IMG/VR virus record: IMGVR_UViG_2541047714_000007
Source: a virus
Lineage: Duplodnaviria; Heunggongvirae; Uroviricota; Caudoviricetes
Strand: one strand, 5' to 3'
DNA length: 35,964 nucleotides
Position 1 is the stretch's first letter, and each line of letters begins with the position of its first letter. The notes below the pieces were generated by a model that was given only the letters and a program-made list of their open reading frames with translations, had not been told where the DNA came from and ran no database searches. Positions 20,658 through 24,702 of the stretch are shown one piece after another. The position numbers and the translations under genes are program-made.

Positions 20658-21375
20658 AACTGCTGCCTCCCCATGTGAGATATCGCGGTGCCAGTTCGCG
20701 CAGGATGCGCTGCGGATAATGGCGGTTCTCCCGCCAGCTGGCCGCATTGCGTCCGGCATTCACCGTGGCGACATGTCCGAACCAGCGGGTGCTGTCCAGA
20801 CCTTTCTGTGATGCAAGCCGCCTGTCCCGTTGTACCCAGCCCAGACCACCGTTATAGCCCGACAGTGTCATGGCCATACGCTCGCAGTCACTGGCGGCGC
20901 TGACGCGCTGCCACAGCCAGCGGTCATAGCTGACCAGCGCCCGGATGGCCCATGCCGGATTAAACGGCTCACGGCTGTTAAGCCCCGGCATCAGCTGACT
21001 TATCCAGTCAGCAGTGGCGGGCATGAACTGCGCCAGTCCCTGAGCGCCAGCCGGCGAGACCGCATCAGGTCGCCAGCCGCTTTCCTGATGCAGTTGCGCG
21101 GCGAAATCGGCCACCGGCGCAGACAGTCCCCATTCAAGCCGGGCATTACGGATCACATCATCGCGATACTGCAGCGCAGCCTGCGGAGGTTGTGCTGCGC
21201 ATGCCTGGCTGAAAAAGCCGCCACACCAGAGCAGCCAGACAATCACCAGGTTGCCAGCAAGCTGCCACCAGAAGCTGTATTTATCGTTACGTGGTTCGCC
21301 GTGTCTGATGGCGGTTACGCCCAGACCAAAGGCGAACAGAATAATGAGGGTGATTTGAGGCCAGTTCATGGTCAC
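20551..21375 (-). CDS. Endolysin, lytic transglycosylase (SLT domain) with N-terminal membrane/SAR-like region
   Basis: SLT catalytic motif region LHQESGWRPDAVSPAGAQGLAQFMPATA; two N-terminal hydrophobic segments (ITLIILFAFGLGVTAI, LAGNLVIVWLLWCGGFF). The 3' end overlaps the spanin gene by about 100 nt in another frame. Confidence 0.8.
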   Translation of the reverse strand: MTMNWPQITLIILFAFGLGVTAIRHGEPRNDKYSFWWQLAGNLVIVWLLWCGGFFSQACAAQPPQAALQYRDDVIRNARLEWGLSAPVADFAAQLHQESGWRPDAVSPAGAQGLAQFMPATADWISQLMPGLNSREPFNPAWAIRALVSYDRWLWQRVSAASDCERMAMTLSGYNGGLGWVQRDRRLASQKGLDSTRWFGHVATVNAGRNAASWRENRHYPQRILRELAPRYLTWGGSSCVASGEKAAVARHSAGHSYQCLSGRPVCHGIQKWS

Positions 21376-21722
21376 AGTCCTGTTGCCACAGCCAGACAGA
21401 CCGCTGCAACAATCAGTGCACGGCGGATTAACGCAGCAGAAAATACAAGGTGAAGGCCGGTCTGCACAGGGAAACGCCCTTCAGCCATCAGCCTGTCGTC
21501 ATGTTTCAGGTACTGACCGGGACGGGCTTTGGGGAAGAGCGAACGGTCAAGCCAGTAACCCAGCACTGCTGCCAGTGTGATGAGTGCCAGCTTGTAGATC
21601 ACAACAGGTAACTGCTGTGGTGAGACCAGAGCGATGGTGCCCAGCAACAGCACTGAGGTCAGCAGCCAGCCGCTGAGGCGAGGTTTTTTAACAGGGGGAA
21701 TGAATTTTTTCAGGTTTTTCAT
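21372..21722 (-). CDS. Putative holin / lysis membrane protein
   Basis: Multi-TM protein immediately upstream of the endolysin. Proposed start is the ATG at 21722 (MKNLKK...) with GGAGAC 4 nt upstream; the ORF-track start at 21755 lacks an RBS. Confidence 0.5.
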   Translation of the reverse strand: MKNLKKFIPPVKKPRLSGWLLTSVLLLGTIALVSPQQLPVVIYKLALITLAAVLGYWLDRSLFPKARPGQYLKHDDRLMAEGRFPVQTGLHLVFSAALIRRALIVAAVCLAVATGL

Positions 21723-21852
21723 GTGTGTCTCCTTGTCTGGTGGAGACAGCATCACAAATACAGGGCGCGAAGGATTTTAAAGCGCGTTAAGAGAGCCGGG
21801 GATACGGGATGTGCAGGATAAACGATGAATTATTCACAGAGGAGAATGCAAC
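21723..21852. promoter_or_regulatory. Divergent promoter region: late operon start (minus) and P-loop gene (plus)
   Basis: 130-bp gap between the first late gene and the oppositely oriented P-loop gene. Inverted repeat GTCTCC(21727-21732)/GGAGAC(21742-21747) overlaps the holin RBS. Confidence 0.35.
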
Positions 21853-22596
21853 ATGACACATACACTGAATCCGGTCATCACTGTCACCGTGTCCGGTCCT
21901 GTGGGCAGCGGTAAAAGTTACGTACTGGCGCGGATAGAGGAAGTGGTGAAACAGGAACTCGGAAACAGCGTCATTGTCGATGCCGCAGACGTGGACGGTG
22001 AGCGCCGTATGAGTGGCGATGATCTGACGACCTGGCAGAAGCCACGGGCTGGCACAGTGATCAGGCTGGAGGAATACACGGGACAGGGCCTGTTGTCATA
22101 CGGCGAGGAGCGTATCTGTCGGACGAATGAGCTACTGGATGTTATATGCCCCACGGGCCGGCAACCCTGGATACTGCCCGATGCACTGCATGCCACCATT
22201 GCGGCACTGATGACAGTTTACGATCAGGAGCTGCTCATGAAGGAGTTACGTAAACTCACCGGTCAGCCAACAGAATGTTGTTCGTCCCCGAAGTACGGGA
22301 AACAGGAACACATCCCGGTAAACACAATCCCCGTTAACCAGCCTCCCCGGTTCTTCGACGAATACATTCTGACACCGGAAAATAAAGCTGAGCATGAAGA
22401 GATCAAAGCGGCGTTGTTCCGGGAAATCAGGAAGATTGCTGAAATGCAGCTGGGGGGCGGGCTGGACAGAGTGATGGCGAGAGGAGAATGGGCATCGCTG
22501 TTTGAAAGAGTTTCCCCGGAATTACTTCCCCTCGCACTGGCTATCGGGATTATGCAGACAGCAGATAAACCTCACTTACGTTCATTAAACACGTAA
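21853..22596 (+). CDS. P-loop NTPase, kinase-like (function unknown)
   Basis: 247 aa; Walker A VSGPVGSGKSY at residues 13-23, then SVIVDAADVD about 18 residues later, an arrangement like small P-loop kinases (shikimate/gluconate-kinase or zeta-toxin-like fold). GGAG upstream of the ATG. Confidence 0.6.
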   Translation: MTHTLNPVITVTVSGPVGSGKSYVLARIEEVVKQELGNSVIVDAADVDGERRMSGDDLTTWQKPRAGTVIRLEEYTGQGLLSYGEERICRTNELLDVICPTGRQPWILPDALHATIAALMTVYDQELLMKELRKLTGQPTECCSSPKYGKQEHIPVNTIPVNQPPRFFDEYILTPENKAEHEEIKAALFREIRKIAEMQLGGGLDRVMARGEWASLFERVSPELLPLALAIGIMQTADKPHLRSLNT

Positions 22597-22976
22597 CGCA
22601 TAATCCGGGATACGCATTCAGCGATGACTGCATTTTCGCCGGTTTTTACTGCATCCAGAAGCAACTCTTTAAATGGTACGGGCCGGGGCTGCAGAAAGGT
22701 CGGCATGGCATTGAGCAGACAGAGCGTTTTTTCCGTGAGGACGACATCAGCCGCTCCCACAGCCAGCAACTGAGAGTAACGAATATAGCTGTTATCCCGA
22801 AGCCATATCAGCGTATCAATAAAATACCGGCACTTTTTCTGGTCGTGATCAACCTGGTCCGGGATATCGAAAAAACCAGAATAAATCAAAACCTGAGGTG
22901 CCGGATGCGTGTTCAGTAATCGGCAGAATATTTTGCCGGTGAGTACATAAAAATCATCATTTAAGGAGTGCATCAT
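22572..22976 (-). CDS. Hypothetical protein, convergent with the P-loop gene
   Basis: 134-aa ORF starting ATGATG at 22976; its 3' end overlaps the P-loop gene 3' end by 25 bp. Slightly AT-richer than the surrounding phage genes by eye. Confidence 0.4.
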   Translation of the reverse strand: MMHSLNDDFYVLTGKIFCRLLNTHPAPQVLIYSGFFDIPDQVDHDQKKCRYFIDTLIWLRDNSYIRYSQLLAVGAADVVLTEKTLCLLNAMPTFLQPRPVPFKELLLDAVKTGENAVIAECVSRIMRYVFNERK

Positions 22977-23190
22977 GAATCCCCGATTAACGTTAACAGA
23001 ACATCAGCGCCGTGCCGAAGCAGTGAACAATGTTCTGGAAGATATTATCCGGTTACATCGCGGAGAACTGAGTATCTGTCGTGCCACTGTTCATTTTCAG
23101 GAAATACAAAAGCAGTTCGATACTTCTGTTTTTGCAGAAGGGATCACTTATGCCCTGGACCAGATAAAGGCAGACAATCACCCCGGATAA
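22975..23190 (+). CDS. Hypothetical small protein
   Basis: 71-aa ORF with AAGGAG 6 nt upstream of the ATG at 22975; its start codon overlaps the divergent start codon of the 134-aa ORF. Confidence 0.35.
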   Translation: MNPRLTLTEHQRRAEAVNNVLEDIIRLHRGELSICRATVHFQEIQKQFDTSVFAEGITYALDQIKADNHPG

Positions 23191-23224
23191 TCCCTAAACC
23201 ACATTAACAGAAATCCCACTATCC

Positions 23225-23345
23225 CTGCCGCATCATGAAAGAACGACCAGCCCGGTGCTTCGGACCCACCGGACTGGCCATCGTCCCACAGAAGTGGCTG
23301 TGAGCCGACCGAGGTTCAGTCAGTCTCGCGAGACCAGACTAGCCT
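23225..23345. other. GC-rich structured intergenic element upstream of the methyltransferase gene
   Basis: Hairpin CCAGCCCGGTG-cttcggacc-CACCGGACTGG (11-bp stem, one mismatch) and a perfect 12-bp palindrome GTCTCGCGAGAC; no ORF. Confidence 0.35.
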
Positions 23346-23381
23346 GCCATATTTTTAATAATTGTAAAAGGCTTACAGATT

Positions 23382-24146
23382 ATGAAAATGCAGACATTAC
23401 CCATCGTTCCATGGATTGGTGGCAAACGCCGCCTTGCAAAACACATTCTGCCGCTGTTTCCGGCGCATGAATGTTATGTGGAGCCGTTCTGTGGGGCAGC
23501 AGCGCTCTATTTTCTTAAGACACCCGGCAAGATCGAAGTCATTAATGATATCAACGGTGAACTGGTGAATCTGTACCGGGTGGTAAAGCATCACCTGGAA
23601 GAATTTGTCCGCCAGTTCAAATGGGCGCTGGTCAGCCGTCAGATCTACAAATGGCTGCAGATCACCCCGGAAGAAACACTGACGGATATCCAGCGTGCGG
23701 CACGGTTCTACTACCTTCAGAAGCAGGCGTTTGGCGGCAAGGTGGCAGAGCACAGCTTCGGTACCTCCACCACATCCCCGCCACGCTTCAACCTGCTGCG
23801 TATTGAAGAAGAACTGTCAGCAGCACACCTGCGGCTTTCCAGAACAGTCATAGAACACATGGACTGGCAACAGTGCATTGAGCGTTATGATCGTCCGCAC
23901 ACGCTGTTCTACTGCGACCCACCGTACCTGGGTACGGAAGGCTATGGTGTGGATTTTCCTGAAGAGAACTACACACTACTCGCAGAACTGGCCCGGTGCA
24001 TCAGAGGAAAGATGATTATCTCGGTGAACGACATTCCGCAGATGCGTCGGGTGTTCACTGAACTGAACATACAGACGGTGAATATCAACTACAGTCTGGC
24101 GGGTAAACCCACGCCGCGCCGTGAACTGGTAATCTGCAACTTCTGA
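23382..24146 (+). CDS. DNA adenine N6-methyltransferase, Dam family
   Basis: N-terminus PIVPWIGGKRRLAKHILPLFPAHECYVEPFCGAAALYF parallels E. coli Dam (WAGGK...LVEPFVGAGSVF); catalytic DPPY motif present (YCDPPYLGTEGYG). Confidence 0.9.
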   Translation: MKMQTLPIVPWIGGKRRLAKHILPLFPAHECYVEPFCGAAALYFLKTPGKIEVINDINGELVNLYRVVKHHLEEFVRQFKWALVSRQIYKWLQITPEETLTDIQRAARFYYLQKQAFGGKVAEHSFGTSTTSPPRFNLLRIEEELSAAHLRLSRTVIEHMDWQQCIERYDRPHTLFYCDPPYLGTEGYGVDFPEENYTLLAELARCIRGKMIISVNDIPQMRRVFTELNIQTVNINYSLAGKPTPRRELVICNF

Positions 24147-24154
24147 AACAAAAC

Positions 24155-24180
24155 CGGAAAGCACAATGCTTTCCGGTAAA
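24155..24180. terminator. Hairpin between the convergent methyltransferase and repressor genes (putative terminator)
   Basis: Perfect 11-bp stem ACCGGAAAGCA-caa-TGCTTTCCGGT; on the minus strand it is followed by TTTGTTTC. Confidence 0.4.
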
Positions 24181-24262: not shown

Positions 24263-24610
24263 TCAGCCTGTAAATTTACTTGGTTTGGGTTGAGTATAGA
24301 ATCGCCCAACCTCAAGAAATGAGCGTCGTTGTTCCGGAGTCATTTCATCAAATGCGTCCATTAATTTTTGTTTTTCTGGTGACATTTTTGGGACAACATT
24401 GGTCATTACATCCCCTCTCTGTCCTGTAACAACGTAAAGCACGTCAAGCCCTAAAGTAGCCCAAATTGCCAAAGCATCTGCTCCGGGAGCGGATTCATCC
24501 TTTTCCCACCGCAATTGGCTTTTATAGGATGCCCCCACCAATTCAGCAAACTCAGACTGACTAAATCCTAGGCGGTTTCTTTCTTCTTTTAATCGTGAGC
24601 CAAGTGACAT
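24263..24610 (-). CDS. XRE-family HTH repressor (immunity repressor candidate)
   Basis: HTH region SRLKEERNRLGFSQSEFAELVGASYKSQLRWEKDES typical of Cro/C1-type; divergent from the early operon. Start chosen at the internal ATG at 24610 (MSLGSRLKEE...); the ORF track extends to 24640. Confidence 0.65.
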   Translation of the reverse strand: MSLGSRLKEERNRLGFSQSEFAELVGASYKSQLRWEKDESAPGADALAIWATLGLDVLYVVTGQRGDVMTNVVPKMSPEKQKLMDAFDEMTPEQRRSFLEVGRFYTQPKPSKFTG

Positions 24611-24702
24611 TTTTGTCCAATACCTATTTACATATCCCATTTTTGGGATAATAATCTAACATATATAGAGCAAACATCATTGCGTTAATAAAGGAGGCAA
24701 CA
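24611..24702. promoter_or_regulatory. Immunity switch region (divergent promoters/operators)
   Basis: AT-rich 92-bp gap between the repressor and the Ner/Cro-like gene; inverted repeat TATCCCA-tttt-TGGGATA at 24623-24640. Confidence 0.4.

Follow-up and report, generated by a model that had tools for sequence, protein, structure and literature searches.

We analyzed a stretch of 35,964 nucleotides (nt), referred to below as the window (IMG/VR record IMGVR_UViG_2541047714_000007), which is a BcepMu-like (Bcepmuvirus) transposable prophage of Escherichia coli, and in it the element that lies 5′ of a DNA adenine methyltransferase gene. As an earlier model-made note on the sequence had described, this gene is placed between an accessory region and the gene of a helix-turn-helix (HTH) repressor-like protein (Table 1), and it is separated by a spacer of 191 nt (23191-23381) from a preceding open reading frame (ORF) of 71 amino acids (aa) that stops at 23190. 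Between 22900 and 24300 the window matches E. coli A20 with 100% and phage PhiKM with 94% identity, and this region was found in 556 of 5426 complete E. coli genomes. In the leader, for which a length of about 190 bp had been given correctly, the note had singled out a hairpin with an 11-bp stem and a perfect 12-bp palindrome, read as a regulator site or an RNA structure. The palindrome is there, and it occurs once in the window as against 0.03 times expected in shuffles; the arms of the hairpin (23247-23257 and 23267-23277, 11 nt each around a 9-nt loop) are complementary at only 10 of 11 positions, and its stem extends further. The two are not separate features, as had been assumed, but helices of one structured RNA best read opposite to the gene, and the gene strand bears a control feature that the note lacked, namely a long-range helix masking the Shine-Dalgarno (SD) sequence.

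The assignment of the product to the Dam-type N6-adenine methyltransferases holds. The ORF matches Pfam PF02086 (MethyltransfD12; E 8.5e-29, 101.5 bits against a cut-off of 22) over positions 1-248 of the 253 in the profile, as well as PHROG 56 (E 2.5e-99), and its DPPY (motif IV, aa 179-182) and FCGAA (motif I, FxGxG/A, binding S-adenosylmethionine, aa 36-40) are matched in the alignment by those of DpnM and E. coli Dam, the two enzymes that are also the nearest solved structures. Since the 254-aa ORF is intact and identical to a RefSeq DNA adenine methylase (WP_000783853.1), the gene is not a frameshifted pseudogene. The NCBIfam model TIGR00571 (“dam”) gives 114.6 bits against a curated cut-off of 114.85, and the equivalog NF008152 (E. 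coli Dam) 67 bits against 441. In the paper on structure 2g1p, the residues with which E. coli Dam reads GATC are said to be K9, N120, L122 and R124; here they align with P10, G118, K120 and A122, in a loop where confidence in the alignment is low. GATC specificity should not be assumed for an enzyme with this sequence, and because the contact residues are not conserved, sensitivity to DpnI or MboI may say little about it. No nuclease or other domain was matched in Pfam, PHROGs or NCBIfam by the neighboring ORFs 21853-22596, 22572-22976 (minus) and 22975-23190, in line with the remark that a cognate nuclease was not obvious, although all three are PHROGs of unknown function and the lack of a nuclease is thus absence of evidence. 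Judged from these comparisons, the enzyme is a solitary (orphan) Dam-family adenine methyltransferase. Hia5, Hin1523 and Nma1821 are also Dam-related, and replace mom in Mu-like prophages, often together with com (Drozdz et al. 2012, PMC3299994). In that paper, ORF48 of phage B3 fell outside the 1000 sequences closest to Hia5 and its activity was not tested; the B3 ORF48 family, which includes the methyltransferase studied here, thus appears to be distinct from the characterized, non-specific Hia5 group.

Only the 3′ part of the spacer, about 150 nt from 23233, is conserved, and this part is shared between Beta- and Gammaproteobacteria, where compensatory changes are plentiful. In Klebsiella phage KP12 and phage Phi06_2974B, whose methylases are about 80% identical to that of the window and whose neighboring genes are different, the homology starts exactly at 23235, and the ~150 nt 5′ of the ATG are more conserved than the coding sequence. 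Using the protein alone, we retrieved 80 genome loci (62-87% aa identity; mainly Enterobacterales, Betaproteobacteria and other Gammaproteobacteria), and from 28 leaders of such protein-retrieved loci we built a covariance model, R1. This model scores 131 bits (E 3e-41) on the module of the window, where a search with filters off found no second copy; in ~70 of the 80 genome loci it has a match on the gene strand, immediately 5′ of the operon, and it finds the module in 98 of 100 viral contigs. Two further scans of viral contigs used sequence patterns derived from the element only, and were therefore independent of the methylase. In the first, the methylase lay downstream of 101 of 120 matches (immediately in 99 cases, after com in 2), the remaining 19 being chance matches, contig ends, four truncated remnants, one locus with com only and one variant preceding a holin-like ORF. 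In the second, 38 matches were preceded by the remainder of the motif, and all of them were followed by the methylase, in 35 cases immediately and in 3 after com; these three com-containing loci were confirmed by the covariance model. The module is also present in phages B3, VP882 and phi1026b and in the Burkholderia thailandensis E264 prophage PhiBt-E264.1, and its position relative to the start codon is kept in the tail operon of B3, in the lysis cassette of phi1026b and after gene D of VP882. Going by these loci, the module accompanies the methylase gene in hundreds of phages of proteobacteria and is almost exclusive to the B3-ORF48-type family. Rfam 15, whose families include riboswitches, ctRNAs, type I antitoxins, c4 and phage motifs, gave no match at gathering thresholds for the window and 20 diverse loci, and sub-threshold matches only in E-value mode with four leaders; a metagenome scan with a 15-base gapped pattern gave only chance matches among the matches listed. 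We found no published description of the element in the literature searched, and it may have been described before.

Several IMG/VR contigs depart from the usual arrangement. On L095, a variant with P1, P2 and P3 and without the anti-SD pairing (helices described below) lies 5′ of a holin-like membrane ORF; on L114 the module precedes com, and there is no methylase within 1.3 kb; and four more contigs (L132, L186, L187 and L137) carry truncated remnants. Methylase and module occur on at least seven scaffolds of Methylophaga thiooxydans DMS010 (L068, L069, L072, L075, L079, L080 and L082) and at three chromosomal sites of Paludibacterium denitrificans (L043, L052 and L065), which fits multi-copy transposable prophages or assembly repeats. 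In phage B3 (L205, AF232233), where the module spans 1195-1342 and precedes com (ORF47), the tiny ORF46 (1212-1292) falls entirely within it and was probably called in error, and the tiny ORF45 (1067-1198) overlaps it by just 4 nt. A small ORF in the leader of the window, a 22-codon frame with an ATG at 23235, was rejected as a conserved feature, as relatives have no start codon there and hairpin lengths vary.

On the gene strand, the central feature of the module is a long-range helix, AS, between an anti-SD box and a strand overlapping the SD, which ends 3 nt 5′ of the ATG. It is part of the minimum free energy (MFE) fold of the window leader (z score -3.29) and was predicted de novo by RNAalifold on a MAFFT alignment. 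Across the relatives it is 88.9% paired, with compensatory changes at eight of nine pairs, as in CUGCAAGUC/GGCUUGCAG, GUGAGCC/GGCUCAC, CCGUUGGCC/GGCCAAUGG and GUGAAUU/AAUCCAC. Its non-Watson-Crick cells are G.U in 77 cases and A.C in 31, favoring the plus (mRNA) strand, and so do those of the weak hairpin P4 that runs into the SD (12 G.U and 1 A.C; 93% paired). Given that the SD lies within helix AS, the ribosome-binding site would be closed at equilibrium, and on this folding model the ribosome-binding site of the first cistron, whether methylase or com, is masked by design.

The remaining helices of the module carry the signature of the opposite strand. RNAalifold was run independently for each strand, with one set of 38 diverse sequences aligned by MAFFT. 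It gave the minus strand -42.9 kcal/mol and 31 pairs (25 compensatory), as against -16.7 kcal/mol and 14 pairs for the plus strand. The minus-strand consensus consists of a closing helix P0′, an 11-bp G.U-rich helix P2′ and a 13-bp helix P1′, with 92.1% of cells paired; its covariation score is 0.58 versus 0.26 in shuffles, a value that none of 500 shuffles reached, and slid controls are at most 55% paired. In the window itself (23233-23354), the minus strand folds with -55.3 kcal/mol (z -3.90) and the plus strand with -37.0 kcal/mol (z -0.87), each measured against shuffles of its own strand. Compensatory changes are found at all 12 pairs of P1; the core pairs of P2 vary (AU42/GC14 and AU43/UA10/GC4); and the inner pairs of P0′, a helix that is not part of the covariance model, are 93-100% paired (GC38/CG10/AU7, AU40/GC15 and GC51/AU7). 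P2′, predicted de novo on the minus strand (11 pairs, 91% paired), has there an extension of G.U-rich pairs that joins two conserved “GGUUGA”-type strands, and P1′, behind which a pyrimidine/U-rich tail lies on that strand, has been flagged as terminator-like. When read on the plus strand, the imperfect pairs are mostly A.C: 68 versus 30 G.U in P1, 13 versus 1 in P2, 54 versus 1 in P0 (beside 360 Watson-Crick cells) and 69 versus 8 in the arms of the apical hairpin P3, which holds the palindrome. As these A.C mismatches are G.U pairs on the minus strand, they are the signature of a minus-strand RNA in all four helices. The same segments covary with two partners. From this, the wobble statistics and the strand-specific folds taken together, we conclude that two RNAs, one from each strand of a single DNA segment, underlie the coupled covariations, as far as sequence comparison can tell.

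Table 1. Positions of the regulatory module, the methyltransferase gene and neighboring features in the window
Feature	Position	Strand	Remarks
Whole conserved regulatory module	23233-23390	both	~150 bp; single copy in window
Methyltransferase coding sequence	23382-24146	+	254 aa; D12/Dam family, phage B3 ORF48 type
Anti-SD box CUGUGAGCC	23298-23306	+	5′ strand of long-range helix AS
SD AAAGG (23367-23371) and GGCUUACAG (23370-23378)	23367-23378	+	3′ strand of helix AS
Weak A/U hairpin P4	23353-23369	+	3′ arm runs into SD
Closing helix P0′, 3′ strand	23236-23244	-	plus-strand purine tract UGAAAGAAC; pairs with 23314-23322
Helix P1′ (11-bp hairpin of the earlier note)	23245-23279	-	13-bp stem; loop YNNNAR (plus-strand reading)
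Helix P2′	23280-23311	-	core CACAG (23287-23291) with CUGUG (23298-23302)
Closing helix P0′, 5′ strand	23314-23322	-	plus-strand alternative partner: AGCCU 23341-23345 (outer P3 helix)
Apical hairpin P3	23318-23340	-	holds palindrome GTCTCGCGAGAC (23323-23334)
Promoter-like site TTTTCA, 16 nt, TACAAT	23361-23388	-	9/12 sigma-70-like; candidate antisense start, not conserved in relatives
Holin gene	21372-21755		minus-strand late genes run down from holin and SLT lysin
Box GGATTTTAAAGCGCGTTAAGAG, intact	21771-21793		5′ of ORF 21853 (+), between divergent holin gene and accessory genes
Accessory region	21853-24146		
Box TAAAnnGCGTTAAnAG, degenerate copy (TAAACCACATTAACAG)	23195-23210	+	just before the RNA module
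Terminator-like 11-bp hairpin ACCGGAAAGCA TTG TGCTTTCCGGT	24153-24177	flagged on -	between convergent methyltransferase and repressor genes
HTH repressor-like gene	24263-24640	-	domain search, RefSeq comparison

Based on these observations, we think it fairly probable that a cis-antisense RNA and a self-masking leader together gate the translation of a potentially harmful methylase. The near-exclusive linkage of the module to the gene family and the covariation of both helix sets, each with its own strand signature, are what the comparison of sequences shows; the element seems to be a new RNA family whose type of regulation is known, combining a cis-antisense RNA with SD sequestration. On the minus strand, the module would encode a structured RNA of about 100-110 nt, antisense to the 5′ untranslated region of the methylase, made up in order of the palindromic 5′ hairpin, P0′, the G.U-rich P2′, the long GC-rich P1′ and the pyrimidine/U-rich tail. 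On the plus strand, pairing of 23298-23306 with 23370-23378 would close the ribosome-binding site. We infer that the minus-strand RNA is produced and base-pairs with the leader, so that the methylase would be kept off except at high, late sense transcription in lytic growth. As the antisense RNA would extend over the anti-SD box and leave out the SD, its pairing could either repress or activate: it may lead to duplex formation and decay by RNase III, acting as a threshold filter against read-through transcripts, an option to which we give slight preference, or it may unmask the SD. Mu-like prophages carry com and adenine methyltransferases at the position of mom, and no extra methylation was detected in their lysogens (PMC3299994); this silence of promiscuous or harmful adenine methyltransferases in Mu-like lysogens provides a rationale for tight control. 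A more far-reaching form of the proposal, which we put forward tentatively and regard as doubtful, is a new and widespread sense/antisense RNA gate, similar to type I toxin-antitoxin systems, in which a Y-shaped antisense RNA whose 5′ hairpin has a self-complementary loop pairs with the anti-SD arm and so gates a promiscuous Mom-like methyltransferase. In such a gate, the antisense RNA might even be an obligatory activator that unmasks the SD, that is, a cis-encoded AND gate, and if this were true, the methylase cassette would be an autonomous, portable unit with anti-restriction and self-silencing functions.

Some results weigh against an antisense RNA gating the leader. The covariation counts are not corrected for phylogeny, and P1 and the core of P2 can also form on the plus strand. 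P0′ is short in the E. coli lineage, where seven of nine positions pair around an internal mismatch, and the tail after P1′ is pyrimidine-rich and variable, often without a canonical U-tract. Weak full-length matches to the antisense RNA family ctRNA_pGA1 (RF00236), found on the minus strand in two of three relatives tested, speak for an antisense RNA, but their 23-25 bits are far under the gathering score of 45, and the window itself gave no such match. Finally, we found no conserved canonical sigma-70 promoter for the minus-strand RNA, such a promoter being present in 29 of 142 sequences versus 17.8 expected in shuffles; a canonical antisense promoter was rejected for this lack of conservation, and a weak arrangement of TTtnCA, 16-17 nt and (T/C)AGGCT is the only promoter-like pattern that recurs across relatives.

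Our first working model was instead a bistable riboswitch on the sense strand, which was demoted by the A.C/G.U asymmetry and the strand-specific results of RNAalifold. In such a model, a single sense-strand leader, riboswitch-like or acting as a kinetic folding switch, would do without any antisense RNA: at the 5′ end, P0, P1 and P2 would form a three-way junction that takes up the anti-SD box, in competition with the P3/AS fold in which the SD is masked, and a ligand, a protein or co-transcriptional timing would pick the fold. The alternative helices are indeed mutually exclusive, and each covaries; the constrained conformers are near in energy (means of -49.2 and -51.0 kcal/mol), the latter being the lower in 36 of 58 sequences; when prefixes that still lack the downstream strands are folded, 84% of the sequences form P2 and 47% form P0; and a cassette working in unrelated phages and hosts fits a self-contained switch. 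However, the putative aptamer helices P0 and P2 have the wrong wobble for the sense strand by the counts given above, the conserved “junction” strands pair through G.U only on the minus strand, the plus strand shows little structure by RNAalifold or by its z score in the window, and no riboswitch family in Rfam matches, so that we regard this switch as unlikely. A further helix, “P5” (AAGCCU/AGGCUU), appeared in constrained folds and never in unconstrained MFE folds, with contradictory covariation, and was discarded. It is also rather improbable that the minus-strand structure is a mere terminator or insulator against antisense transcription, for instance read-through from the repressor gene, with no role in pairing or in trans. 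The flagging of the GC-rich P1′ and its tail as terminator-like speaks for this, as does a run of 5-8 U after the closing helix in some relatives, but for a terminator the three further covarying helices, the conserved G.U-rich strands and the conserved loop would be superfluous, the tail is often U-poor, and the position of the module relative to the start codon is constant across very different gene contexts.

The two parts of the earlier suggestion, a regulator site or an RNA structure, fared differently, since covariation and wobble support the RNA structure and the palindrome argues against a fixed operator. A DNA operator at which a dimeric regulator of the methylase promoter binds the 12-bp palindrome would account for a perfect dyad that is unique in the window and lies 5′ of the gene, and restriction-modification methylases are often under palindromic operators. 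Yet the sequence of the palindrome is not conserved: 19 different restriction-site-like central hexamers occur at P3 with the dyad symmetry kept. Moreover, the cassette contains no regulator gene that varies along with it, the imperfections of its arms, read on the plus strand, are nearly all A.C and so bear the mark of RNA, and its flanks are conserved as paired RNA; an operator is therefore hardly credible. The minus-strand RNA might alternatively assist the methyltransferase as partner or cofactor, or be a separate small RNA of the phage that only shares the locus and has other targets, which could explain why it occurs almost exclusively with this methylase family and why the enzyme lacks the sequence-reading residues of Dam. 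We consider this very unlikely, as the RNA overlaps the 5′ untranslated region of the gene and the anti-SD box, precedes com rather than the methylase in many phages, and includes several apical palindromes without adenine (CGCGCG, CCCGGG), which could not specify targets of adenine methylation. The self-complementary apex of P3 falls outside all the models considered. A perfect even palindrome of at least 8 nt is found at P3 in 64% of 84 unique variants, as against 5% for P1, and being perfect and even it makes the 4-nt loop self-complementary; RNA homodimerization, a mutation bias due to template switching, or a role at the DNA level at the antisense start are possible explanations.

Among known systems, the proposed antisense gate recalls hok/sok, where a long-range intramolecular helix likewise closes the SD and a structured antisense RNA lies opposite the 5′ leader. 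Gultyaev, Franch and Gerdes reportedly described in 1997 such “coupled covariations” in hok mRNAs, in which one segment has two partners; in the module, the two partners of the shared segment are on different strands. The module also differs from hok/sok in that it precedes a gene for a 254-aa enzyme and not a small membrane toxin, with no 3′ processing or post-segregational killing indicated, and none of the type I toxin-antitoxin families of Rfam matched it. Plasmid ctRNAs (RF00236) and the antisense RNAs of restriction-modification systems resemble the minus-strand RNA in being short, structured and opposite a 5′ leader, with a GC-rich hairpin and a tail, but the fold of the ctRNAs is different, the module having a Y shape with the closing helix P0′ and a palindromic 5′ hairpin. 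Translational riboswitches share with it a conserved structure 5′ of one class of genes and an anti-SD/SD helix; in the module, by contrast, the structured domain reads on the opposite strand, no Rfam family matches and no ligand is indicated.

The module would be a functional analogue of the com-mom system of phage Mu. There, too, an adenine-modifying enzyme that is harmful when untimely is encoded at an accessory or late position of a transposable phage, and an inhibitory RNA structure contains a ribosome-binding site. Many relatives of the module carry the gene of a Com-like zinc-finger protein between module and methylase, which recalls com-mom. In the window, the enzyme is a methyltransferase and not Mom, and no Com-like ORF (CxxC...CxxC) was found near the gene. 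The covariance model finds no module in Mu, where Pmom lies directly next to the ribosome-binding site of com, and we know of no antisense RNA in the com-mom system. Two small zinc-finger ORFs lie in the early region of the window, at ~34160 (+) and ~30061 (+), with a TraR/DksA-type C4 finger and a zinc ribbon, neither of them Com-like.

A strongly covarying RNA family that is absent from Rfam 15 is thus present in about one in ten complete E. coli genomes, and in the model phages B3, VP882 and phi1026b and the B. thailandensis E264 prophage it has been left unannotated or called as tiny ORFs. It offers a testable way in which potentially mutagenic or toxic Mom-like, Dam-like phage methylases could be silenced in lysogens and released late, which would extend the com/mom paradigm to a layer of control by RNA only. 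For methylome studies, it is a caution that the prophage methylase need be neither GATC-specific nor expressed in lysogens. A single DNA segment under selection for RNA structure on both strands is also of interest for motif discovery, as the pipelines in use assume a single strand.

Downstream of the accessory region, the HTH repressor-like gene (minus) is followed by a ner-like gene and a DDE transposase gene (plus). The terminator-like hairpin between the convergent methyltransferase and repressor genes would restrict read-through of the repressor transcript into the antisense strand of the methylase gene. On the other side of the module, the degenerate box just before it may be a promoter or activator site for sense transcription. 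In prophages of Brenneria, Photorhabdus and Symbiopectobacterium, the intact form of this box adjoins the module directly upstream, which suggests that the accessory genes 21853-23190 are an insertion that separated the methylase cassette from its promoter or activator site. The idea of a late-activator site with copies at further promoters was considered and rejected, as the palindrome is unique in the window and the box recurs once only, at 21778; this recurrence does not exceed chance for so degenerate a pattern, and the full 22-nt form nonetheless matches the relatives. At another locus (L047), from a metagenome-assembled genome of Pseudomonadota, a TwoAYGGAY RNA (RF01731; 4035-4105, minus; 44.2 bits against a gathering score of 43) lies ~300 nt 3′ of the methylase gene.

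GATC is scarce in the window, with 101 sites observed versus 138 expected under a mononucleotide model and 180 under a Markov model, and it does not occur in the 191-nt spacer. In Yersinia pekkanenii (L042), Ca. Pantoea bathycoeliae (L055) and Ca. Sodalis (L064), homologues of the methylase lack the RNA module, and clusters of GATC sites lie in an AT-rich region upstream of the gene, an arrangement that suggests methylation-sensitive transcriptional control and GATC specificity in this subgroup.

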